Shown here: positions 4,081 through 34,658 of the stretch, one piece after another
How positions within the stretch are numbered: position 1 is the first letter of the stretch
Layout: each line of letters starts with the position of its first letter
Virus record (IMG/VR): IMGVR_UViG_2721755658_000005
Location: 1 to 46,563 of that record
Length of the DNA: 46,563 bases
Strand: one strand, 5' to 3'
DNA from: a virus
Taxonomy: Duplodnaviria > Heunggongvirae > Uroviricota > Caudoviricetes
The notes under the pieces: model-generated
What the model saw: the letters and a program-made list of their open reading frames with translations, nothing else
Told to the model about the DNA's origin: nothing
Databases searched by the model: none
Position numbers and translations under genes: made by a program

Positions 4081-5793
4081 CTAATTGGTCTCTATAATTG
4101 AGCTTAATTCGTTAATGAGCAGGTGAGGGCTCATTTGAGTTAAGTCATACTGCCGCCCCAATTTCTCTTGCATTCCTCCTCGTATTTTCTTTAATAAATA
4201 TTTGCCTTTAATGTTATTAACTGATGTCGGAACTTGGTTTCCAAATAATGTTAGGTGTCGAGGGCATGCTTCCAGTCTCCCCTTATATAAATTATATTTA
4301 ATCACCTCTCTTTTGGATTGAAAATCAGACTGGATGACAACATGATTTTGTGCGGCTATATCAGTAATCCATGTTTGTATATCTTGCACAGAAGAGCCTG
4401 TAACATGAGATAAATGCTCTATTCTGGTAAAATAACTCTCAATATCACTACCTTCAGTAATGAATGGAATGGCGCCACCTCTTTGAATTTCTGCTTTTAC
4501 TATATCTACTTCTTCATCAGTCATAAAATCGCGGTCACGATGAATTATAACCTTGCAATTAGGGGACATTTCCTTAAGAAGGTCAGCAGATACAATTGCT
4601 CCTTGCACATTTGTGCATGTTTTGTAGCTATAGACTGCAGTTCTCTCCATATCAAAACCATTATATTGTAAAAGGGCCTTGAAATATTTTTTATCTCTAT
4701 CTTCAGTGAGAAATATATTCTCCACAACTCCTTCAGTTACTCTATCCAAGTCATTTAAAGCTCCTAAATCTAAGAACATTGATATTTTGTCCAAATCCAT
4801 GCCTTGATTCTGAACATTACCATCTTTCATCCAAATAAAATTTGCCTCTCCATACAATGAATCAATTATATGTTTGCTATGAGTGGAAAGTATAACTTGA
4901 GTTTCTGATTTGTTATTTTCTGATATTAAACTCAATGAGTCAGTGAGAATATATTGATTATCAGGGTGAAGATGAGAATCCGGTTCATCTAAGAGTAATA
5001 ATTTAGGTTTGAAATATACTATATATGCAAATATCTGTAATGTTTGAAGTAATCCAGTTCCCGCCAACTCGATAGGGTAATTTTTCCCACTTGCATTTTC
5101 TTTAAAATTAACGGTTAGATAAGTATCTTTATCCTCTTTGAAATCCACTTCGATTTCTATATCTGGAAATACAACTTGCAGCATGCTATTGAGATTTACC
5201 AAGTGGTTATCTTTGTTCAGATAGTATATGACATTCCTTAAGTATAAATTTGCATCACCACTTGCCACTCCTCTTCTAACTATTGCTGGCGATTTTAATT
5301 CTTCCTTCTGTGAGATACCAGCCAGACCAGGGACATATATACTAAAGAGATTTTTTTCATCGGTGATTACTGAACCGAAGCCGGTATAATCACCGGTTCT
5401 TTCACATGACATATTTCCATGATTTCGTCCCTTAGATATAATTATATTGTATTCTAATTGTCGACCAGCAAGATCATCATATCCAAAAAGACTCAACACA
5501 CTTTGATTGCCAGGCGACCTCGAATTCTTATAAGGTTCGCCGTTCTTTAAAACAGTGAAGTCTGGGGTGATATTATACATTAAAAGTTCAGTAGAGAATG
5601 TTTGTTGACTTTGTTGCCGAGCGGCAATAGCTGCGCATACTGAAAAATGTATAGCTTGCAGAATACTGCTCTTACCTGAACTATTTGCCCCTACTAATAC
5701 ATTTATATCACTAAGGGTGATTTCTGCTGTGTCAATTTTTTTGAATTTACTAACAGACAAAGACTTAATGAACATTTTCTTTTCCTTTTTCAA
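4081..5793 (-). CDS. OLD-family-like ABC-type ATPase with C-terminal TOPRIM-like region; candidate phage-exclusion protein
   Basis: Walker A GANSSGKSS, Walker B LLLLDEPDSHLHP, H-loop-like LSTHS; C-terminal acidic motifs FLTEDRD and IIHRDRD; gene visibly AT-rich compared with flanking DNA. Confidence 0.6.
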   Translation of the reverse strand: MKKEKKMFIKSLSVSKFKKIDTAEITLSDINVLVGANSSGKSSILQAIHFSVCAAIAARQQSQQTFSTELLMYNITPDFTVLKNGEPYKNSRSPGNQSVLSLFGYDDLAGRQLEYNIIISKGRNHGNMSCERTGDYTGFGSVITDEKNLFSIYVPGLAGISQKEELKSPAIVRRGVASGDANLYLRNVIYYLNKDNHLVNLNSMLQVVFPDIEIEVDFKEDKDTYLTVNFKENASGKNYPIELAGTGLLQTLQIFAYIVYFKPKLLLLDEPDSHLHPDNQYILTDSLSLISENNKSETQVILSTHSKHIIDSLYGEANFIWMKDGNVQNQGMDLDKISMFLDLGALNDLDRVTEGVVENIFLTEDRDKKYFKALLQYNGFDMERTAVYSYKTCTNVQGAIVSADLLKEMSPNCKVIIHRDRDFMTDEEVDIVKAEIQRGGAIPFITEGSDIESYFTRIEHLSHVTGSSVQDIQTWITDIAAQNHVVIQSDFQSKREVIKYNLYKGRLEACPRHLTLFGNQVPTSVNNIKGKYLLKKIRGGMQEKLGRQYDLTQMSPHLLINELSSIIETN

Positions 5794-9153: not shown

Positions 9154-10023
<870 letters not shown>

Positions 10024-10043: not shown

Positions 10044-10087
10044 AACCGCAGCACGATCTTCTTCCATACGACGTGCTACGGTTTCAT
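10044..10087. repeat. Copy C (partial, diverged) of the repeat family; likely bidirectional terminator between convergent genes
   Basis: aaccgcagcacg...cgtgctacggtttcat matches the 3' hairpin half of copies A and B. Confidence 0.55.
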
Positions 10088-10638
10088 TTATCTCCGACCG
10101 GAAACTTCTTATACAGTGTCGATATACCAACATCATAGATGATCGCCACCTTCTGGCGAGGGACGCCTGATGCAATTAATCGCCCGGCCTGCGCCCATTG
10201 TTCTGGTGTAAGTTTGGGACGACGTCCACCAATTCGTCCCTGTGCGCGAGCAGCGTCCAGTCCAGCTTTTGTTCGTTCAACAATCAGTTCTCGTTCCATT
10301 TCAGCCAGGGCACCCATCATATGAAAGAAAAAACGCCCCATCGGTGTGCTGGTATCAATAGCATCCGTCAGGCTGCGAAAATTAACGCCACGTTCGCGCA
10401 ACTCCTCAACCAGAATGACCAGATGCCGCATACTACGCCCCAGCCGATCCAGCTTCCAGACAACCAGAGTGTCACCTGCCGATAATGTCCTGAGCAGTTT
10501 TTTCAGTCCCGGCCTTTCGGACTTTGTACCGCTTATCTTGTCTTCAAAAATCAGCTCGCATCCTGCACAGTTCAGCGCATTACGTTGTAGATCTGTGTTC
10601 TGGTCATTTGTTGACACACGTACATAGCCAATAAGCAT
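10084..10638 (-). CDS. Serine DNA invertase (Pin/Gin/Hin family)
   Basis: N-terminus MLIGYVRVSTNDQNTDLQ with catalytic-serine context; C-terminal HTH; adjacent to the invertible tail-fibre segment. Confidence 0.85.
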   Translation of the reverse strand: MLIGYVRVSTNDQNTDLQRNALNCAGCELIFEDKISGTKSERPGLKKLLRTLSAGDTLVVWKLDRLGRSMRHLVILVEELRERGVNFRSLTDAIDTSTPMGRFFFHMMGALAEMERELIVERTKAGLDAARAQGRIGGRRPKLTPEQWAQAGRLIASGVPRQKVAIIYDVGISTLYKKFPVGDK

Positions 10639-10664
10639 GGTAGATCTCCCTGACAAAAGCAGGA

Positions 10665-11159
10665 ATGATGCCATTTGCTCGTTATTTCTGCATTTTCATA
10701 AACGTTGGTTTGGGAGAATCGGCAAAACGGAATGTGGGCAACGGGGAAAACCAAATCCCTGATATGTCTTTCTGGACGGTTACTGGTGGCAATGGAAATT
10801 TTGTGATTCGTCAACCTGACGGGCTAATCATTCAGATGGTTACTGTAAGTATAAGCGGCCCGGTGGCGATGAATGGAATGACTGATAATGCTTATGCCAT
10901 TACAGGTTCTAATAAGTCTTATATTGCCACAGCCACATTGCCCTTTGTATTTCCTAATAAGGTGCTGGGCGTTATCCCTCTGGTATCAACAACAGCTTAT
11001 GGTGGTGTATCCAGTAATATTACAGGTTCATACGCGACTGCGGTTTGTTCTTTTGCCGCTGTCAGGGGGAATAATACGATTGTGTTCAAAGTCGACAAAC
11101 CACTGAATGCAGCCTTTCCTTCAGATACCAGCGTCTCAGCGTTAATCATTGGACGGTAA
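10665..11159 (+). CDS. Alternative tail-fibre C-terminal variable segment (expressed after inversion)
   Basis: The crossover site falls at a GLGE junction motif shared with the active fibre gene; no independent N-terminal constant region. Confidence 0.55.
   Translation: MMPFARYFCIFINVGLGESAKRNVGNGENQIPDMSFWTVTGGNGNFVIRQPDGLIIQMVTVSISGPVAMNGMTDNAYAITGSNKSYIATATLPFVFPNKVLGVIPLVSTTAYGGVSSNITGSYATAVCSFAAVRGNNTIVFKVDKPLNAAFPSDTSVSALIIGR
10683..10708. repeat. Invertase crossover site (left inverted repeat of invertible segment)
   Basis: ttttcataaacgttggtttgggagaa; its right half is the reverse complement of the right half of 12677..12702; resembles gix/hix-type sites. Confidence 0.6.
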
Positions 11160-15576: not shown

Positions 15577-16655
15577 CAGAACGGGTCCTCCTGTACTCTG
15601 GCTTTTTTCTTTTTCCGCGCGCCGGGGGCTTCTGGTTCAGGCAGATAAGCATCAGGTGGGCCGACACGGATTTCCGTCAGGGTGCCGTTCTGGTCCTGAG
15701 TAAACGTGACTTCCGAGACAAGCAGTTCGGTATTGTCGAAACCACAGACCGGATCGAAGACAATCACCCGCTGGTTGGGCTGCCACAGCGTACCGTTACC
15801 CTGTCGCCAGCCCTGCACCACATAGGTGGTTTCATCCGTCCGCGCCGCCCGTTGTCGGGCTTCAAAGTCAGCACGCGCAATACAGCCTGCCCCCGTGGCC
15901 TGCCCTGTCTGCCTGATATACATCGGACGGTAACGGGCAATAAATGCGTCCTCTGTGCGGGCCCGCAGCGCGGTGGTGGTGGCCTCACCGAAATCATCGT
16001 CGTTTCCGGCACGCTGCCCCGCCACCTGGTAAACTGAAAACCGCTCCCGGATACTCTTCTCCGTATCACAGGAAAGGATGTTTTCCCCAAGTACCAGCGC
16101 GGTATGTGCCCGCGTTGAGCCAATACCGCCAATCACCAGCCTGCCGTGCGGGTCGTCATAAGCCAGCGCCTGCTGCTGACCGAGTATTTTGTTGATCACC
16201 TCGATCACCGTTTCACCGTGATCAGGCTGGACATCAGGAATAACACCCGACGGCGCATCGCTGTTCACCACCTCAATGCCGAAAGGCGCAGCAAGCGCCT
16301 GCGCAATCTGTACCAGCGATCGTCCGTTAAACTGTGTCGGTTCGGCTGCACAGTCAATCAGGTCAGCAGTCAGACTACGTCCGGCAATACCGGTGCTGAC
16401 CGAACGGGCATCGTAACGAACGGGGGTCGCCTCCACCCAGCCGGTGATCACCAGCTCATCACCAATTAGCACTTCCACTTTTGAACCATTTTTAATGCGC
16501 GGCTGAAGCGTGGTGATACCCTCATCTCCCGGCCACTGGCGGGTGATCTCCACGTTGAAATCCCGCGCCAGCCGTTCAATACCGGCACCGATGCGCACCG
16601 ATGTCCAGCCATTCCACTCCCGGCCATTTACCCGTAGCGTGACGTTATCGTTCAT
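15576..16655 (-). CDS. Tail/baseplate hub protein (Mu gpP-like)
   Basis: 359-aa product following the DNA-circulation-like gene. Confidence 0.6.
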   Translation of the reverse strand: MNDNVTLRVNGREWNGWTSVRIGAGIERLARDFNVEITRQWPGDEGITTLQPRIKNGSKVEVLIGDELVITGWVEATPVRYDARSVSTGIAGRSLTADLIDCAAEPTQFNGRSLVQIAQALAAPFGIEVVNSDAPSGVIPDVQPDHGETVIEVINKILGQQQALAYDDPHGRLVIGGIGSTRAHTALVLGENILSCDTEKSIRERFSVYQVAGQRAGNDDDFGEATTTALRARTEDAFIARYRPMYIRQTGQATGAGCIARADFEARQRAARTDETTYVVQGWRQGNGTLWQPNQRVIVFDPVCGFDNTELLVSEVTFTQDQNGTLTEIRVGPPDAYLPEPEAPGARKKKKARVQEDPF

Positions 16656-17986
16656 TGCACTGGCACCTTCAGAGGGATCACCGGCACAAAGCCGGGATGC
16701 GTAATGGCATTACGCCGGATAATGTCCGCGTCACGCGCCGCGTTATCAAACCAGGTCGCCGCCAGCACCAGCGCGGGTAAAACCTCATCCGGTGTGCGAT
16801 GAATGATCCGTGCAGACTGTTCAAGGCGCGTGTTGATATCCGCATTCAGATCTGCTTTCACCCGGCGCAGCGCCAGAAACAGCGCATCACTGGTTGTACG
16901 GGACAACTCCTTATCAATTGCCGTATTCAGTGTGTCGCGAATGTCGGTCAGTTCTTCCCACGTTGGCAGGTCAACCGTGTTTTTCACCGCAGGTGCATTG
17001 TTCAGTGCCGGATGCGTGACGGAAGGCCAGCCAGTGCTCTGCGCGGGTGTTGTTGACTGCCCCACTGTGGCATTCTGCATCACCGCGGAAGTTGTGGGCG
17101 CAGGCAATCGTGTGACGGCATACGCCGCTTCGCTGATTGCGGTCGTACGAAGGGTGCTGGCAACCACGTTACGCTGCTGCGTAGCCGTGGCGGTGGTTTT
17201 ACTGTCCGTTTTCCAGATGCCGCGGGGTTGCAGATTACTGCCGAGACTGACCCCGGAAAACGTTTTGATCATGGTGACCAGGTCGCTGGCGTTACCATAA
17301 AGGCGTTTCCCGGTACGCCACATTTTCTGCACCTGCTCAACGAAATTTTTGCCTGACGATGGCGGCGACAGAAGTACCGAGATATCCCCCTGCAATAGCC
17401 TGGCGGCATCCGATACGGCAGAATCCACCACTTTCATCGCATCAGAAACATACCCAAGCATTGTGCTGGCATTACCGACGACGTCGTTCTGCACAAAATC
17501 TGCCACGCCATCGATACTGAAACTACTGAAACTGTCACTGATGCAGTCATCCAGTGCAGAACAGGATGACATCAGCGTCTGCGCCGTCGCCGCACCTGAT
17601 GTGGGGTAAGAGAGTTCTCCCGCTTCGACAAACTTCAGGTCAAAGCGGACAATACGCCCTTCACTCTTCGATGTGCTGACCCGAACCTCTCCGTCAACAC
17701 AGACTTTCAGCTCACCGTAAGTCGGATGGACAAGCGTGCCGGGACCGGGTTTATTCAGCGCGTCAATCAGGCGATCGCGCTGGTCAAAGCAGTCATCTCC
17801 CACCACATAAGCCGTGATGGACGGGCGGAAAGTGACTTTTCCCAGATCTTCGGTATAGGGTTTGTCGCGGTTCGGATATTCGTGTGTTTCCACACGACGG
17901 CCGGTTCCCGCACTTTCTTCTTCAACCTTAAACGGCACACCTCGAAATGACGCATCCTGAAGCCTGTCTTTCCACGTCATATACAC
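16652..17986 (-). CDS. Mu gpN-like DNA circulation protein (tail module)
   Basis: 444-aa product with N-terminus MTWKDRLQDASFRGVPFKVEEE typical of gpN-like proteins. Confidence 0.65.
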   Translation of the reverse strand: MYMTWKDRLQDASFRGVPFKVEEESAGTGRRVETHEYPNRDKPYTEDLGKVTFRPSITAYVVGDDCFDQRDRLIDALNKPGPGTLVHPTYGELKVCVDGEVRVSTSKSEGRIVRFDLKFVEAGELSYPTSGAATAQTLMSSCSALDDCISDSFSSFSIDGVADFVQNDVVGNASTMLGYVSDAMKVVDSAVSDAARLLQGDISVLLSPPSSGKNFVEQVQKMWRTGKRLYGNASDLVTMIKTFSGVSLGSNLQPRGIWKTDSKTTATATQQRNVVASTLRTTAISEAAYAVTRLPAPTTSAVMQNATVGQSTTPAQSTGWPSVTHPALNNAPAVKNTVDLPTWEELTDIRDTLNTAIDKELSRTTSDALFLALRRVKADLNADINTRLEQSARIIHRTPDEVLPALVLAATWFDNAARDADIIRRNAITHPGFVPVIPLKVPVQ

Positions 17987-17990
17987 TCCG

Positions 17991-18022
17991 AAAATAAAAA
18001 AGCCACCTATTAGAAGGTGGCC
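17991..18022 (-). terminator. Strong rho-independent terminator immediately downstream of the tail-module moron gene
   Basis: Minus-strand hairpin ggccacct-tctaat-aggtggc followed by ttttttatttt; about 15 bp upstream of the gpN start. Confidence 0.65.
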
Positions 18023-18041
18023 TTGTAATGAATTTTATTAA

Positions 18042-18572
18042 TTAGCGAGTCAGAAACAACGAATCTTTATACTTTTGCTGTTGTTCATTTAAATACTTAG
18101 CTGTTTCATCGCTGGCAAATGGAAATATTACCGTATTTTTAGGCATAGTAATTTCTTTTTTGTCCAGCGTCAGAGTAAACATAGGAACATACTGAGCAGA
18201 GTAACGCACCGCAGAAACGAGCTCTAGTTTAGACTCTTCAATAACACTTAAATTATCCAAGCTAACTTTCTCTTCATCTTTTTTCTTTGACGCATTTAAA
18301 GTTTTTATTACTTTATTTAATTTCTCCTGAAAATCCTCCTTAAAGTTTTCAGGATTGCCGTCGACAACAAGAATCTGTTCACCCTGATTATCTGGAAAAA
18401 TAATCTTTGCACTTATCAATTTATTTTCTTTATAAACATCACCAAGTTTTATGGCTCCTCCAGATAACTGAATAATATGTTCATCTTTAAAGGAGATGTT
18501 GCCAGAGATTATGAGAGATGAAAAAATAGCCGCTGCTCCAAGAATTACACTTGCTGTGATATAGCCTTTCAT
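18042..18572 (-). CDS. AT-rich exported/membrane-anchored hypothetical protein (moron in tail operon)
   Basis: N-terminal hydrophobic segment ITASVILGAAAIFSSLIISG; sits between the tape measure and gpN genes; has its own terminator. Confidence 0.55.
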   Translation of the reverse strand: MKGYITASVILGAAAIFSSLIISGNISFKDEHIIQLSGGAIKLGDVYKENKLISAKIIFPDNQGEQILVVDGNPENFKEDFQEKLNKVIKTLNASKKKDEEKVSLDNLSVIEESKLELVSAVRYSAQYVPMFTLTLDKKEITMPKNTVIFPFASDETAKYLNEQQQKYKDSLFLTR

Positions 18573-18663
18573 TTTTCGCCTATTAACATTTTTCTAAATG
18601 TGCATTAATTCTATCACTCTATTTATGACTTACAACCAGCAATACATGTGAGGGGAATCCTGG

Positions 18664-20496
18664 CTACCAAAATCGGGTATAGCCAACATCGTGATTTATA
18701 TCAATGCCACTGGAGCGTGTTTCCGTAACCCGCATACCTGGTGGCATATTTATAAATGATACCTTGATCTCACCATCAACTTTTGACGCGGTAGCTTTAT
18801 TAATCATGAAGGGATTCGAGCCTGTGGCATCGGAGGCGTTGTTTGCCTGAGCCGGATCCACCGCCGGATAAGGCGTGTATCCCCGTGCCGGTATTCCCGT
18901 CCCATAAGCATCATAAGCACCCGCGCCCCACTGCGCCGAGTTAATGGTATCGACCGTGTCACCGGAACTGTCGGTAAACCATTCAATAATCGGCTTCAGC
19001 TTATCCCACATATCCTGAAACCACTTAACAACCGGTCCCCAGTTATTGATCACCATCCCCAGCGGCGACCAGGCAAAAACTTTCTTAAGGAGTTCCCAGC
19101 CAGCCTCAAAATAAGGACCAATGGTTTCCCAGAGCTTCTTGAAATAAGGTCCGACAACATCCCAGTTAGTGATAATTAATCCCGCAGCCAGGGCTATCGC
19201 CGTCGCAATCATGCCAATCGGCGTCATCGACATGATCCTGCTGACAATGCTGATGGCACTGCCCACGCCCATCAATCCCAGTTTCAGAATCGCAAGACCG
19301 GCAGCAAGCCCGACGACGCCGCGAATAACCCGGGGATTTTCATCCGCAAACTTCGTGAATTTCTCCCCCAACTCCCCCAGCCACTGCGTGATGTTCTTAG
19401 CGTCACCAGAAAATGCGCCGCCAATAGCCGCAAGGCCGTTAGTTGCGGTCCCCGTCATTGCCTCCCACAGGTTGGACAGCGTACCAAGCTGAGCCTGAAC
19501 ACGTTTATTCAGGCTGGCCTGTTTATTCATCTTCTGCTGGATCTGATCGTAGCCATCCTTTCCTTTATCGATTAGTGCATTGACCACCTGAAGGGTTTCG
19601 GCATCATCACCAAATATTGCCTTAAGTACACCGGTTCGCTTAACGTCGGTCAGTTTTCGCAGCTTTGCCAGTTGCCTGAACATGTTATCAAGACCGCCAA
19701 AACTCCCTTTGCCATCAGTAAAATCGAGCTGTACCCCGAGTTTCTGGCGGGCCATGATTTTATTGACGTCCCTGATTTTCTTAACGCTTAATCCGGACTG
19801 GATAACTTTTCGCAGGGCATTACCTGCCGACTCCCCGTTCATCCCCATCTGATCCATCATGACACTGATGGGGGCAAGACTCTGTGCAGCCTGAAGACCG
19901 TCCTTATTCACCATCTTCAGAACAGAGCTGGTTTTAGTGAAGAATGACAGCATGTTGGTGTCGTCAACGCCCAGATAAAACGCCTTCTGAATTGTGTCGA
20001 ACAGCCCCATCATGTCTTCTGAGGCCGTTCCGGTAGCATCCTGCATCTTTGCGGCAAACTCGGCAGCCGCTTCCGGTGTTTTTTTCAGTTGTACCGCAAG
20101 ATAAGCTGTCGCTTTACCCACACCACCCAGAATGTTTTCTGCCGGGATCCCCTGACGCACCAGCATCTGCATCATGTTCTGGAAATCAGCCGTTGTACCG
20201 GGTAGCTGGTTACCCAGGCCAATAGCCAGTTTATTGATGTCCTGAAAGCTCTTTCCAACCTCGCCGTTCGCATCCATCATGGCGACTTTCAGCCCGGTAG
20301 CGGCGTTTTCCTGATCGGCATAAGATTTCAGGGAAAGCGTCAGCCCCGCTGCCAGTCCGCCACCAAGAGCCAGCCCACCCTGTGACGCTTCTTCCGCCTG
20401 GCGTTTAAATCCCCGGATTTTCTTTTGCATTTTCGACAGCGCGGGAGAAAGCCTGTCGACACCGGTGATCAACGCCTTAAGCTCAAACTCAGCCAT
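18664..20496 (-). CDS. Tail tape measure protein
   Basis: 610-aa product with Ala/Gly-rich hydrophobic central region; follows the tube and chaperone genes. Confidence 0.75.
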   Translation of the reverse strand: MAEFELKALITGVDRLSPALSKMQKKIRGFKRQAEEASQGGLALGGGLAAGLTLSLKSYADQENAATGLKVAMMDANGEVGKSFQDINKLAIGLGNQLPGTTADFQNMMQMLVRQGIPAENILGGVGKATAYLAVQLKKTPEAAAEFAAKMQDATGTASEDMMGLFDTIQKAFYLGVDDTNMLSFFTKTSSVLKMVNKDGLQAAQSLAPISVMMDQMGMNGESAGNALRKVIQSGLSVKKIRDVNKIMARQKLGVQLDFTDGKGSFGGLDNMFRQLAKLRKLTDVKRTGVLKAIFGDDAETLQVVNALIDKGKDGYDQIQQKMNKQASLNKRVQAQLGTLSNLWEAMTGTATNGLAAIGGAFSGDAKNITQWLGELGEKFTKFADENPRVIRGVVGLAAGLAILKLGLMGVGSAISIVSRIMSMTPIGMIATAIALAAGLIITNWDVVGPYFKKLWETIGPYFEAGWELLKKVFAWSPLGMVINNWGPVVKWFQDMWDKLKPIIEWFTDSSGDTVDTINSAQWGAGAYDAYGTGIPARGYTPYPAVDPAQANNASDATGSNPFMINKATASKVDGEIKVSFINMPPGMRVTETRSSGIDINHDVGYTRFW

Positions 20497-32558: not shown

Positions 32559-32885
32559 TTACTCCTTAGAGCCACCAAACTTATTACCGATTACTCTCAT
32601 TGCAGCCCCACGAATAGCATCAACACCGATCAGCCCCACCCCACCACCAATGGCAACAGATAGTGATTTAGGCCATCCGACATACTCAAGAGCGGATGCA
32701 AAAGTCAGCGTCAGAGCGCCACAGAGTAGAATTTCGAGTGTTTTTCGCTTCCAGCCGCCACCACCGCCAAAATAGGCAATACGTAAACCAGCCATAACAA
32801 TCGACATAATCACTGCGCCCAGCGGTGTGTCTCCACGCCACCAGCTCTGGACCAACTCCAGCCAGGTATTTGGGTTATGAGGCAT
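32559..32885 (-). CDS. Holin
   Basis: 108-aa product with two or three TM segments, immediately upstream of the endolysin gene. Confidence 0.7.
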   Translation of the reverse strand: MPHNPNTWLELVQSWWRGDTPLGAVIMSIVMAGLRIAYFGGGGGWKRKTLEILLCGALTLTFASALEYVGWPKSLSVAIGGGVGLIGVDAIRGAAMRVIGNKFGGSKE

Positions 32886-33231: not shown

Positions 33232-34251
33232 TTGGATAAGTTTGATGAGATTCATGTAGACATTGAATCTGAGCAGCAAGCCTTCGATTTGCTTGAAAGC
33301 TATCTTGATGGTTATGGTTTACCTGACAGTTTAAGTTTCAACGGATGGCCAAACCTTACCATCAGATTAACCGGTGAAAAATTCAACAGATCGCTAACAC
33401 CTTCAGTTATGAAGGGATTTGTTGAAATGCAAGCTCAAATCAACAAATCATATGCCCTTGCCAAGTACGGTGTCCCTGACGTCCGCAAACTGACCAAAGA
33501 AGAACTTGATGCCCTAGAAATAGAAGTTACGGTAGAACAGGGTTCTTCAATAGTAGAAATCAACATTGATGGCTTTTTAACCAAACTCACACAGGAACTT
33601 GTTGGTAAAATGAACGCAACTGAGATCATGTTTACTGTTCTCGGCGCAGCAGTCATCTGGGGCGGAGTAACAGTATTTAAACGGTTCTTGGACAACCGTA
33701 AAGATATTCGCCTTGCAGAAATTGCTAAGGATGGAGAGAAAGAACATCTCCGGACTATGCAGATCATGAGCGAGCAAGAAACTAAACGCCTGCGGGTTAT
33801 TTCAGAAATGATTGCGGAAAAACCACTTCTCGATAACATGGACCGTATGTCGTATGACGCTAAAACCCAAATGGTCAAATCCTTTGTGCGTTCAGATAAC
33901 GCTCAAATTGATGGCGTTACTATTGATTCTGAAATGGCGAAAGAGTTGGTTACGAATGCTCGTAGACGTTCATCAGAAATGAGGATTGATGGTATTTACC
34001 GAATTGAAGAAGTCAATAATACTGACCCAGAGAGTTTCAAAGTTAAGGTCCGACGCGTAGATACCGACCAACGTCTAACCTGCGTAGTTCAGGATGTTTT
34101 CCTTGATGAATCCGGAAACAAAGAAGCATTGCAGCGAGCTGAGTGGGAAAGAAAGCCTGTACATTTGAGCATTAACGCAAAACACGTCGATGGTGACATT
34201 AAGTCAGCAGTAATTCTCTATGTTCGAGATGTGGAACAAAAGCCCGAGTAA
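33232..34251 (+). CDS. Hypothetical single-pass membrane protein (moron between Q and lysis genes)
   Basis: 339-aa ORF with TTG start; central TM helix IMFTVLGAAVIWGGVTVF; opposite strand to the late operon; no recognised family. Confidence 0.5.
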   Translation: MDKFDEIHVDIESEQQAFDLLESYLDGYGLPDSLSFNGWPNLTIRLTGEKFNRSLTPSVMKGFVEMQAQINKSYALAKYGVPDVRKLTKEELDALEIEVTVEQGSSIVEINIDGFLTKLTQELVGKMNATEIMFTVLGAAVIWGGVTVFKRFLDNRKDIRLAEIAKDGEKEHLRTMQIMSEQETKRLRVISEMIAEKPLLDNMDRMSYDAKTQMVKSFVRSDNAQIDGVTIDSEMAKELVTNARRRSSEMRIDGIYRIEEVNNTDPESFKVKVRRVDTDQRLTCVVQDVFLDESGNKEALQRAEWERKPVHLSINAKHVDGDIKSAVILYVRDVEQKPE

Positions 34252-34265
34252 TCGGGCTTCAATAA

Positions 34266-34658
34266 TCAATCTTTAATTTCGGGGTCCATCTCTAGACTAA
34301 TTTCCAGCATCGATAGGCAGCCATCAATAAACCCCTCAGCCATCTGTATCTCAATGCGTATTAGTTTCTCATCCTTTTTACGAGCCTTGGCGAGCTTTCT
34401 TTTAGAGATACCGTATAGGTAATGGGCAACAAGAAGCGAATGTTCGTCCGGCCTTTTTTGCCTTAGACGAGCAAGACAACCTTCAATAATTAATGCATCA
34501 CTATCTGAACATGCCTGACGTGTTTTGCTTGTATAGGGAAGAAGCCCTTTAAACCCAGCAGCTATAGGAGAATAGTCTACTCCTGAACTATCACTCGCCG
34601 CCCATGCTCCCCAACGATCCAGAACCATTTGAATATCACGCATCAACTTTCTCCACAA
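34266..34658 (-). CDS. Late antiterminator Q-like protein
   Basis: 130-aa product containing YLYGISKRKLA; position immediately before the late/lysis region. Confidence 0.6.
   Translation of the reverse strand: MWRKLMRDIQMVLDRWGAWAASDSSGVDYSPIAAGFKGLLPYTSKTRQACSDSDALIIEGCLARLRQKRPDEHSLLVAHYLYGISKRKLAKARKKDEKLIRIEIQMAEGFIDGCLSMLEISLEMDPEIKD

Follow-up and report, generated by a model that had tools for sequence, protein, structure and literature searches.

The window (the whole stretch of DNA that was analysed, 46,563 nucleotides) carries an SfV-like prophage of E. coli, in which the late operon of Mu-type tail genes lies on the minus strand. Within this operon a 677-bp AT-rich stretch separates the tape measure gene from the gene encoding a gpN-like protein, and it contains three elements, i.e. 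a promoter-like site, an open reading frame of 176 codons and a hairpin. The GC content of the insert is 0.33-0.34, compared with 0.50-0.55 (approximately 0.52) in the flanks. An earlier note on this DNA had described an AT-rich insertion encoding a 176-aa protein between the tape measure and gpN-like genes, followed by a hairpin and T-run about 15 bp before gpN. The flanking matches to PF10145 and PF07157, the base composition and the spacing all agree with that description; 18 nt separate the base of the hairpin from the ATG of gpN at 17980, and the T tract ends 10 nt before this ATG. The features are, in the direction of transcription:

34266..34658, minus strand: gene for a Q-family antiterminator (PF06530, E 2.1e-52), upstream of the holin gene and the late operon
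18664..20496, minus strand: tail tape measure gene, the upstream flank and left border of the slot (PF10145, E 1e-26; phrog_28/17727)
18608..18635, minus strand: sigma-70 promoter-like site for the cargo gene, from a consensus scan (TTGTAA, 16-nt spacer, extended -10 TGaTAGAAT)
18042..18572, minus strand: cargo gene, a 176-aa ORF encoding an N-terminal TM helix and an alpha/beta domain (phrog_5485)
17991..18024, minus strand: intrinsic-terminator-like hairpin followed by T6-A-T4 (stem 18024..17999, core GGCCACC/GGTGGCC; T tract 18001..17991)
17986..17989, minus strand: Shine-Dalgarno sequence GGAG of gpN
16652..17980, minus strand: gene for a gpN-like DNA circulation protein (baseplate hub), the downstream flank and right border of the slot (PF07157 DNA_circ_N, E 3e-34; phrog_184)

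We note that the ORF-finding tool starts gpN at a GTG at 17986. This overlaps the Shine-Dalgarno sequence of gpN itself (GGAG, 17989..17986), and the ATG at 17980 is therefore the likelier start codon. The same ATG is the start assigned to gpN by PGAP in the near-identical SEC470 prophage.

The promoter-like site lies in the 91-nt gap past the stop codon of the tape measure gene. The 20-kb late operon as a whole is depleted in such sites, with seven found where 14.7 +/- 3.5 would be expected, and only three of these are on the minus strand, that of the cargo gene among them. Most of the orthologues of the cargo gene have a comparable element upstream (TTGnnA-16/17-nAnAAT). Hexamers of this kind occur often in AT-rich DNA, and the Shine-Dalgarno sequence of the cargo gene is weak. 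We infer that 18608..18635 could act as a promoter for the cargo gene.

Presence, absence and exchange of cargo at the slot

SfV, SfI and SfII are isolated serotype-converting phages (PMC3851460, PMC3636060, PMC3772137). In all three the distance from the stop codon of the tape measure gene to the start codon of gpN is 45 bp, with no insert. The cargo gene is absent from SfV, SfI, SfII and SfIV (PMC3851460), while the flanking genes are 91-96% identical. It is dispensable for virion production, and comparison with these related tail modules indicates that its homologues are not conserved structural components of the tail.

The distribution in E. coli was examined in a census of 5,426 complete genomes, 1,091 of which contain the flanking sequence. 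The cargo gene is present in 177 (i.e. 177 of the approximately 1,091 with the flank, and about 3% of all), and in 178 of 179 records the identity is 99% or more. It is essentially always found between the same flanks, with 177 genomes counted for the gene alone and 174-176 when both flanks are counted with it. The gap in E. coli accepts at least five mutually unrelated AT-rich cargos, one of which is inserted in the opposite orientation:

176-aa TM-anchored protein (the type found in the window), same strand as the tail operon: 177 genomes
170-aa signal-peptide protein (phage SKA5 type), same strand: 85 genomes
148-aa TM-anchored OB-fold protein (PF12869), opposite strand: 72 genomes
225-aa lipoprotein (LLGGC lipobox), same strand: 55 genomes
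125-aa bPH_1 protein, same strand: 28 genomes

On this comparison we regard the interval between the tape measure and gpN genes as a classical moron hotspot. Searches of the literature found no description of a cargo slot at this position. Morons were defined for phages HK97 and HK022 (Juhala et al. 2000; reviewed in PMC3594210). The cassette is absent at the same position from close relatives, it has a deviant base composition and it is followed by its own terminator-like hairpin. Together with the membrane or export segment of the product, this bears out the earlier proposal of a moron insertion. The slot is similar to the hotspots of P2-like prophages and P4-like satellites (Rousset et al. 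2022, PMC9122126), in that alternative and unrelated accessory genes occupy a fixed intergenic position. Unlike these it is found in another phage family and at another position, and it holds single, small and mostly envelope-directed cargos with no PADLOC match rather than multi-gene defence systems.

One record of a different kind is NZ_CP081716.1 (L100), a 37.7-kb circular 'plasmid' of E. coli CX04 that is a complete SfV-like phage genome with the cassette and a fragment of dusA. This may be the excised circular form of the phage. Its many frameshifted genes probably result from noisy long-read assembly.

Orthologues that are 53-59% identical, from Leclercia and three IMG/VR contigs, are inserted at the equivalent position between the tape measure and gpN genes. 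The tail modules concerned have tape measure proteins 36-77% and gpN proteins 67-71% identical to those of the window. All are AT-rich (GC 0.34-0.38), and each is followed by its own hairpin and T-run. The ratio dN/dS is 0.03-0.18 wherever synonymous sites are unsaturated, reflecting strong purifying selection on the cargo gene. We take the 176-aa ORF to be a real gene because orthologues at this level of identity give such ratios.

In Lelliottia amnigena (L009, 5809..6560) an intact orthologue with its hairpin lies beside icd. Upstream is a 31-aa remnant of the C-terminus of the tape measure protein, gpN is missing, and there are no other phage genes within 6 kb. The locus is a decayed prophage, of which the cargo gene alone has been left intact. 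More distant members of the family, in Pseudomonas and Plesiomonas, are found in islands bounded by an integrase or a resolvase, one of which adjoins a GmrSD-type gene. The Lelliottia copy and these distant island members show the phrog_5485 family to be portable cargo that is maintained independently of tail genes.

These observations bear on the possibility that the 176-aa protein is a conserved accessory of tail assembly or structure, acting for example with the tape measure protein or gpN, with the hairpin as an element of the mRNA. The constancy of the flanks in E. coli, the occupation of the slot in lineages with such divergent tape measure proteins and the shared orientation with the operon are all as expected for such a role. 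Indeed, in several lineages the gene has stayed and diverged together with the tail genes for longer than would be anticipated of a casual passenger, which counts against reading the cassette as a moron. However, the gene is absent from the isolated Sf phages, unrelated genes substitute for it (one on the opposite strand), and it survives in Lelliottia without tail genes and has distant relatives in non-phage islands. Moreover, tails are assembled in the cytoplasm, and an N-terminal TM helix is predicted for this protein. We consider a structural role to be very unlikely, and a structural tail protein was rejected as an identity on the basis of its absence from functional relatives.

The hairpin ahead of gpN and the Q antiterminator

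The hairpin of the cassette comprises ten base pairs with a loop of six nucleotides, and has a calculated free energy of -15.6 kcal/mol (z = -3.6); none of 200 shuffled sequences folds as well. Scanning the cassette against Rfam gave only sub-threshold matches to attenuator-terminator and attenuator-leader models, which reflect the terminator shape. All the same-strand cassettes have their own GC-rich hairpin followed by T6-7, placed directly ahead of the shared ribosome binding site of gpN. The sequence of the hairpin differs for each cargo, while its position and structure are conserved in orthologous and non-orthologous cassettes alike. The stems are:

window: GGCCACC/GGTGGCC
SKA5: CCCGCCA.../TGGCGGG
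bPH cargo: GCCCAC/GTGGGC
lipoprotein cargo: AACCCGC/GCGGGTT

The junction ...TTTTTTAT(A/G)nCCGGAGTnTATATG is common to all the same-strand variants, and in each the sequence ATATCCGGAGTTTATATG, containing the ribosome binding site and start codon of gpN, comes directly after the T-run.

A hairpin is also found where there is no insert. The insert-free gaps of SfV (L001, 2796..2842) and SfII (L003, 3296..3342) retain a hairpin with T6 (TCCCAC-TCCG-GTGGGA-TTTTTT), that of SfI has a hairpin and T-run too, and the depositors of the SfII sequence annotated theirs as a rho-independent terminator. A terminator unique to the insert is thus ruled out by its occurrence at empty sites. At these empty sites of SfV and SfII the hairpin may be native to the operon, or it may be a scar left when a moron was lost.

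By contrast, the antisense OB-fold cassettes have no hairpin with T-run before gpN in the direction of the operon. In the gap where the tape measure and cargo genes converge, these cassettes contain a very GC-rich hairpin (CAGGGAGGGC...GCCCTCCCTG; L092 1139..1170 and L094 997..1027). The weak T-run of this hairpin is on the cargo strand only, and there is none on the tail-operon strand. Since the same-strand cassettes and the empty gaps have a hairpin and T-run ahead of gpN while the antisense cassettes lack one, the element appears to be neither required for expression of gpN nor harmful to it.

The occurrence in insert-free SfV, SfI and SfII might suggest that the hairpin and T-run are native to the tail operon, either as an attenuator setting the ratio of baseplate to tube and sheath proteins or as a stabilizer of the 3' end of the mRNA, and that morons insert upstream of it. 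We think this unlikely. The sequence of the hairpin changes with every cargo, indicating that it travels with the cassette, and the antisense variants show that it is dispensable for the expression of gpN. In addition, polymerase modified by Q should ignore it.

The Q-family gene of the window lies upstream of the holin gene and the late operon, and the order Q-holin-late operon is identical in the near-identical SEC470 prophage. In lambdoid late regulation, Q-type antiterminators modify RNA polymerase so that it reads through intrinsic terminators. The presence of Q is the probable reason why an internal terminator does not block expression of the tail genes in lytic growth. The earlier note had treated the terminator as a peculiarity of the insert that would be expected to interrupt transcription of the tail operon. 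Its reading of an AT-rich moron with its own terminator stands, but the expectation of a block does not, given an equivalent in the empty gaps of SfV and SfII and behind every same-strand cargo, and an antiterminator encoded upstream. The comparative evidence, taken with the presence of Q, would remove the apparent paradox of a terminator inside the tail operon.

The interval between Q and the holin gene (32559..32885) itself contains a 339-aa ORF on the opposite strand (33232..34251, plus strand) with no match in Pfam or PADLOC. At the same position the SEC470 prophage has a KAP-family NTPase gene (L010, 35304..36635). This interval looks like a second variable cargo slot.

The 176-aa protein and its family

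The 176-aa protein matches phrog_5485, a family of unknown function, over its entire length (E 3.8e-108, residues 1-176 of 176). Scans of the protein against Pfam, NCBIfam and PADLOC gave no match. Among 56 aligned relatives there was again no match in any of these three, and the PHROGs matched were families of unknown function only, with phrog_5485 matched by all 56. Searches of the PDB by sequence and by fold gave no significant match, and neither the protein nor a more distant member of the family had a tblastn match in 50,697 deposited phage genomes. We found no mention of phrog_5485 or of the accessions in the literature, including the supplements of DefensePredictor.

The exact protein sequence is found on at least 1,000 contigs, with close homologues in E. 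coli 99% identical, and scanning IMG/VR returned almost exclusively identical E. coli copies. In Leclercia and Lelliottia the identity falls to 52-58%. An exhaustive profile search gave 77 clusters at 50% identity, nearly all of which have 170-180 aa and align over their full length. Residues G39, L43, G44, E49, N93, Y124 and L134 are conserved, in a structural rather than a catalytic pattern, and there is no cysteine. Two identities could be rejected from these properties. An enzyme is ruled out because the conserved Gly, Leu, Tyr, Asn and Glu residues form no catalytic pattern, and a lipoprotein because cysteine is lacking.

The earlier suggestion of an N-terminal signal or anchor segment is consistent with the sequence and the model. 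The sole strongly hydrophobic segment is residues 5-23 (mean Kyte-Doolittle value 2.11), which is modelled as helix; K2 lies on its N-terminal side and there is no lipobox. The AlphaFold2 model, made from the alignment of 56 sequences, has a pLDDT of 91.4 and a pTM of 0.76. It consists of a helix at residues 2-23, a beta-meander at 33-72, a helix at 74-93, a long beta-hairpin at 114-143 and a helix at 149-171. The product is most likely a bitopic protein of the inner membrane, with its N-terminus in the cytoplasm and an alpha/beta domain of approximately 150 aa in the periplasm. Alternatively the N-terminal segment could be a cleaved signal peptide, possibly processed after S23.

The only significant fold match was a 'Lipoprotein' of Pseudomonas phage ventosus in BFVD (A0A2H4P829; Foldseek E 2.9e-6, TM 0.55/0.65), two predicted models being compared. 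Both proteins are phage-encoded and would be tethered in the envelope. A0A2H4P829 is only 12% identical, has a lipid anchor in place of the TM helix and is itself uncharacterized. The match suggests the same domain on a different envelope tether.

Probable role of the cassette

Taking all the evidence together, the best explanation, which we hold to be highly probable, is that 17991..18663 is an autonomous moron cassette, located in a hypervariable slot where the tape measure gene is followed by gpN in a Q-regulated prophage of the SfV type. As a moron the cassette is ordinary; elements of this kind are well known, while its phrog_5485 member is uncharacterized. In the lysogen the late operon would be silent and the cassette transcribed from its own sigma-70 promoter, with the terminator stopping the transcript before gpN so that the baseplate genes stay off. 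After induction, RNA polymerase modified by Q would pass the hairpin, giving normal expression of the tail genes and co-transcription of the cargo. The product probably binds some target in the envelope, to the benefit of the lysogen.

The cargo gene has the orientation of the late operon and might just as well act in lytic growth, which counts against a role in the lysogen. The cassette might thus function mainly under Q, guarding the infected cell from secondary injection or the progeny from ejection into debris. T5 Llp and T4 Imm and Sp are examples of lytic-phase protection of the cell or the progeny. The location within the Q-antiterminated unit, the weak Shine-Dalgarno sequence and the modest evidence for a promoter are in keeping with this. 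On the other hand, purifying selection has kept the gene in a decayed prophage from which the late promoter is missing, the antisense cargo implies that the slot supports independent expression, and the promoter-like sites and terminators specific to the cassettes are what lysogenic expression needs. A mainly lytic function therefore seems to us improbable, but lytic and lysogenic roles are compatible and need not exclude one another.

The closest analogy for a moron acting in the lysogen is the archetypal moron, gene 15 of HK97. It is a neighbour of the tape measure gene, and its inner-membrane product brings about superinfection exclusion by a tail-dependent block to the entry of DNA (PMC3594210). 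In both cases an extra gene of low GC content, absent from close relatives and with a promoter-like site and a terminator, is found by the tape measure gene of a tail operon, and encodes a small inner-membrane protein (predicted here). There are also differences. The 176-aa protein has no relationship in sequence or fold to HK97 gp15 or YebO and has a sizeable predicted periplasmic alpha/beta domain, and its slot follows the tape measure gene in a contractile-tail module of the Mu type. Moreover gp15 has been shown to block DNA entry, while exclusion by the 176-aa protein is a candidate role. Like P22 SieA, T4 Imm and Sp, phi80 and N15 Cor, and T5 Llp, the protein is phage-encoded, predicted to be anchored (membrane or lipid anchors being used in this group), non-enzymatic and dispensable for virion production. 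Unlike these it showed no homology to them in the Pfam, PHROG annotation, PADLOC, or PDB sequence and fold searches.

Several other genes in the window are of interest with respect to defence. A 274-aa protein encoded at 9199..10023 (plus strand) matches PD-T4-3 (PADLOC PDLC04031, E 2.7e-140; GIY-YIG, PF22945). Its gene is at the tail-fibre end of the prophage, adjoining a Pin-type invertase gene (10084..10674, minus strand), and the prophage therefore carries at least one recognized defence gene. Outside the tail region, 4081..5793 (minus strand) encodes a 570-aa AAA_15/AAA_21 ATPase, whose best PADLOC matches are to NsnB, AriA (PARIS), Old and GajA-type models, and which is a candidate defence ATPase. 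The segment 1346..3232 (plus strand) contains genes for antirestriction (PF03230), RadC-like (PF04002) and CbtA toxin (PF06755) proteins, and belongs to a CP4-type island adjoining the prophage.

The protein might alternatively be a lysogenic conversion or fitness factor unconnected with phage defence, contributing to tolerance of envelope stress, serum resistance or adhesion. Lambda Bor and Lom are conversion factors that act at the envelope. Such a function would suit a protein with a predicted envelope location and no catalytic residues among its conserved positions, which occurs widely in E. coli isolated from a range of hosts, and the other cargos of the slot include envelope proteins as well. 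Weak hints towards defence come from the distant homologue beside a GmrSD restriction gene and from PD-T4-3 in the prophage of the window. We regard conversion apart from defence as possible, though clearly not the favoured reading.

The predicted envelope location, the lack of a catalytic motif, the retention after decay of the prophage, the envelope-type cargos of the slot and the PD-T4-3 gene of the prophage together lead us to rank an envelope role for the lysogen, above all exclusion, ahead of conversion unrelated to defence, followed by a function in lytic growth and lastly by a structural role. By analogy, a host-protective role at the level of the envelope such as superinfection exclusion is plausible, and the likeliest single candidate is that the protein blocks the entry of DNA from superinfecting phage.

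Recent work shows that defences situated in the membrane can engage tape measure proteins at the stage of injection (PMC13190303). More tentatively, and at rather long odds in our estimation, phrog_5485 could be a new class of injection blocker, in which an anchored domain facing the periplasm intercepts the DNA conduit formed by the tape measure protein and gpN of contractile Mu-type tails, making the slot an 'entry-defence' hotspot. If this were so, the other envelope cargos (i.e. the secreted protein, the lipoprotein and the membrane OB-fold protein) would be alternative exclusion devices.

The cargo of the window is thus common though uncharacterized, being present in some 3% of the complete E. 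coli genomes and on 1,000 contigs or more, and has a confidently predicted fold with no solved relative. The slot as a whole offers a compact and easily cloned panel of candidate genes for superinfection exclusion or lysogenic conversion, relevant to phages with Mu-type tails, including the serotype-converting phages of Shigella.
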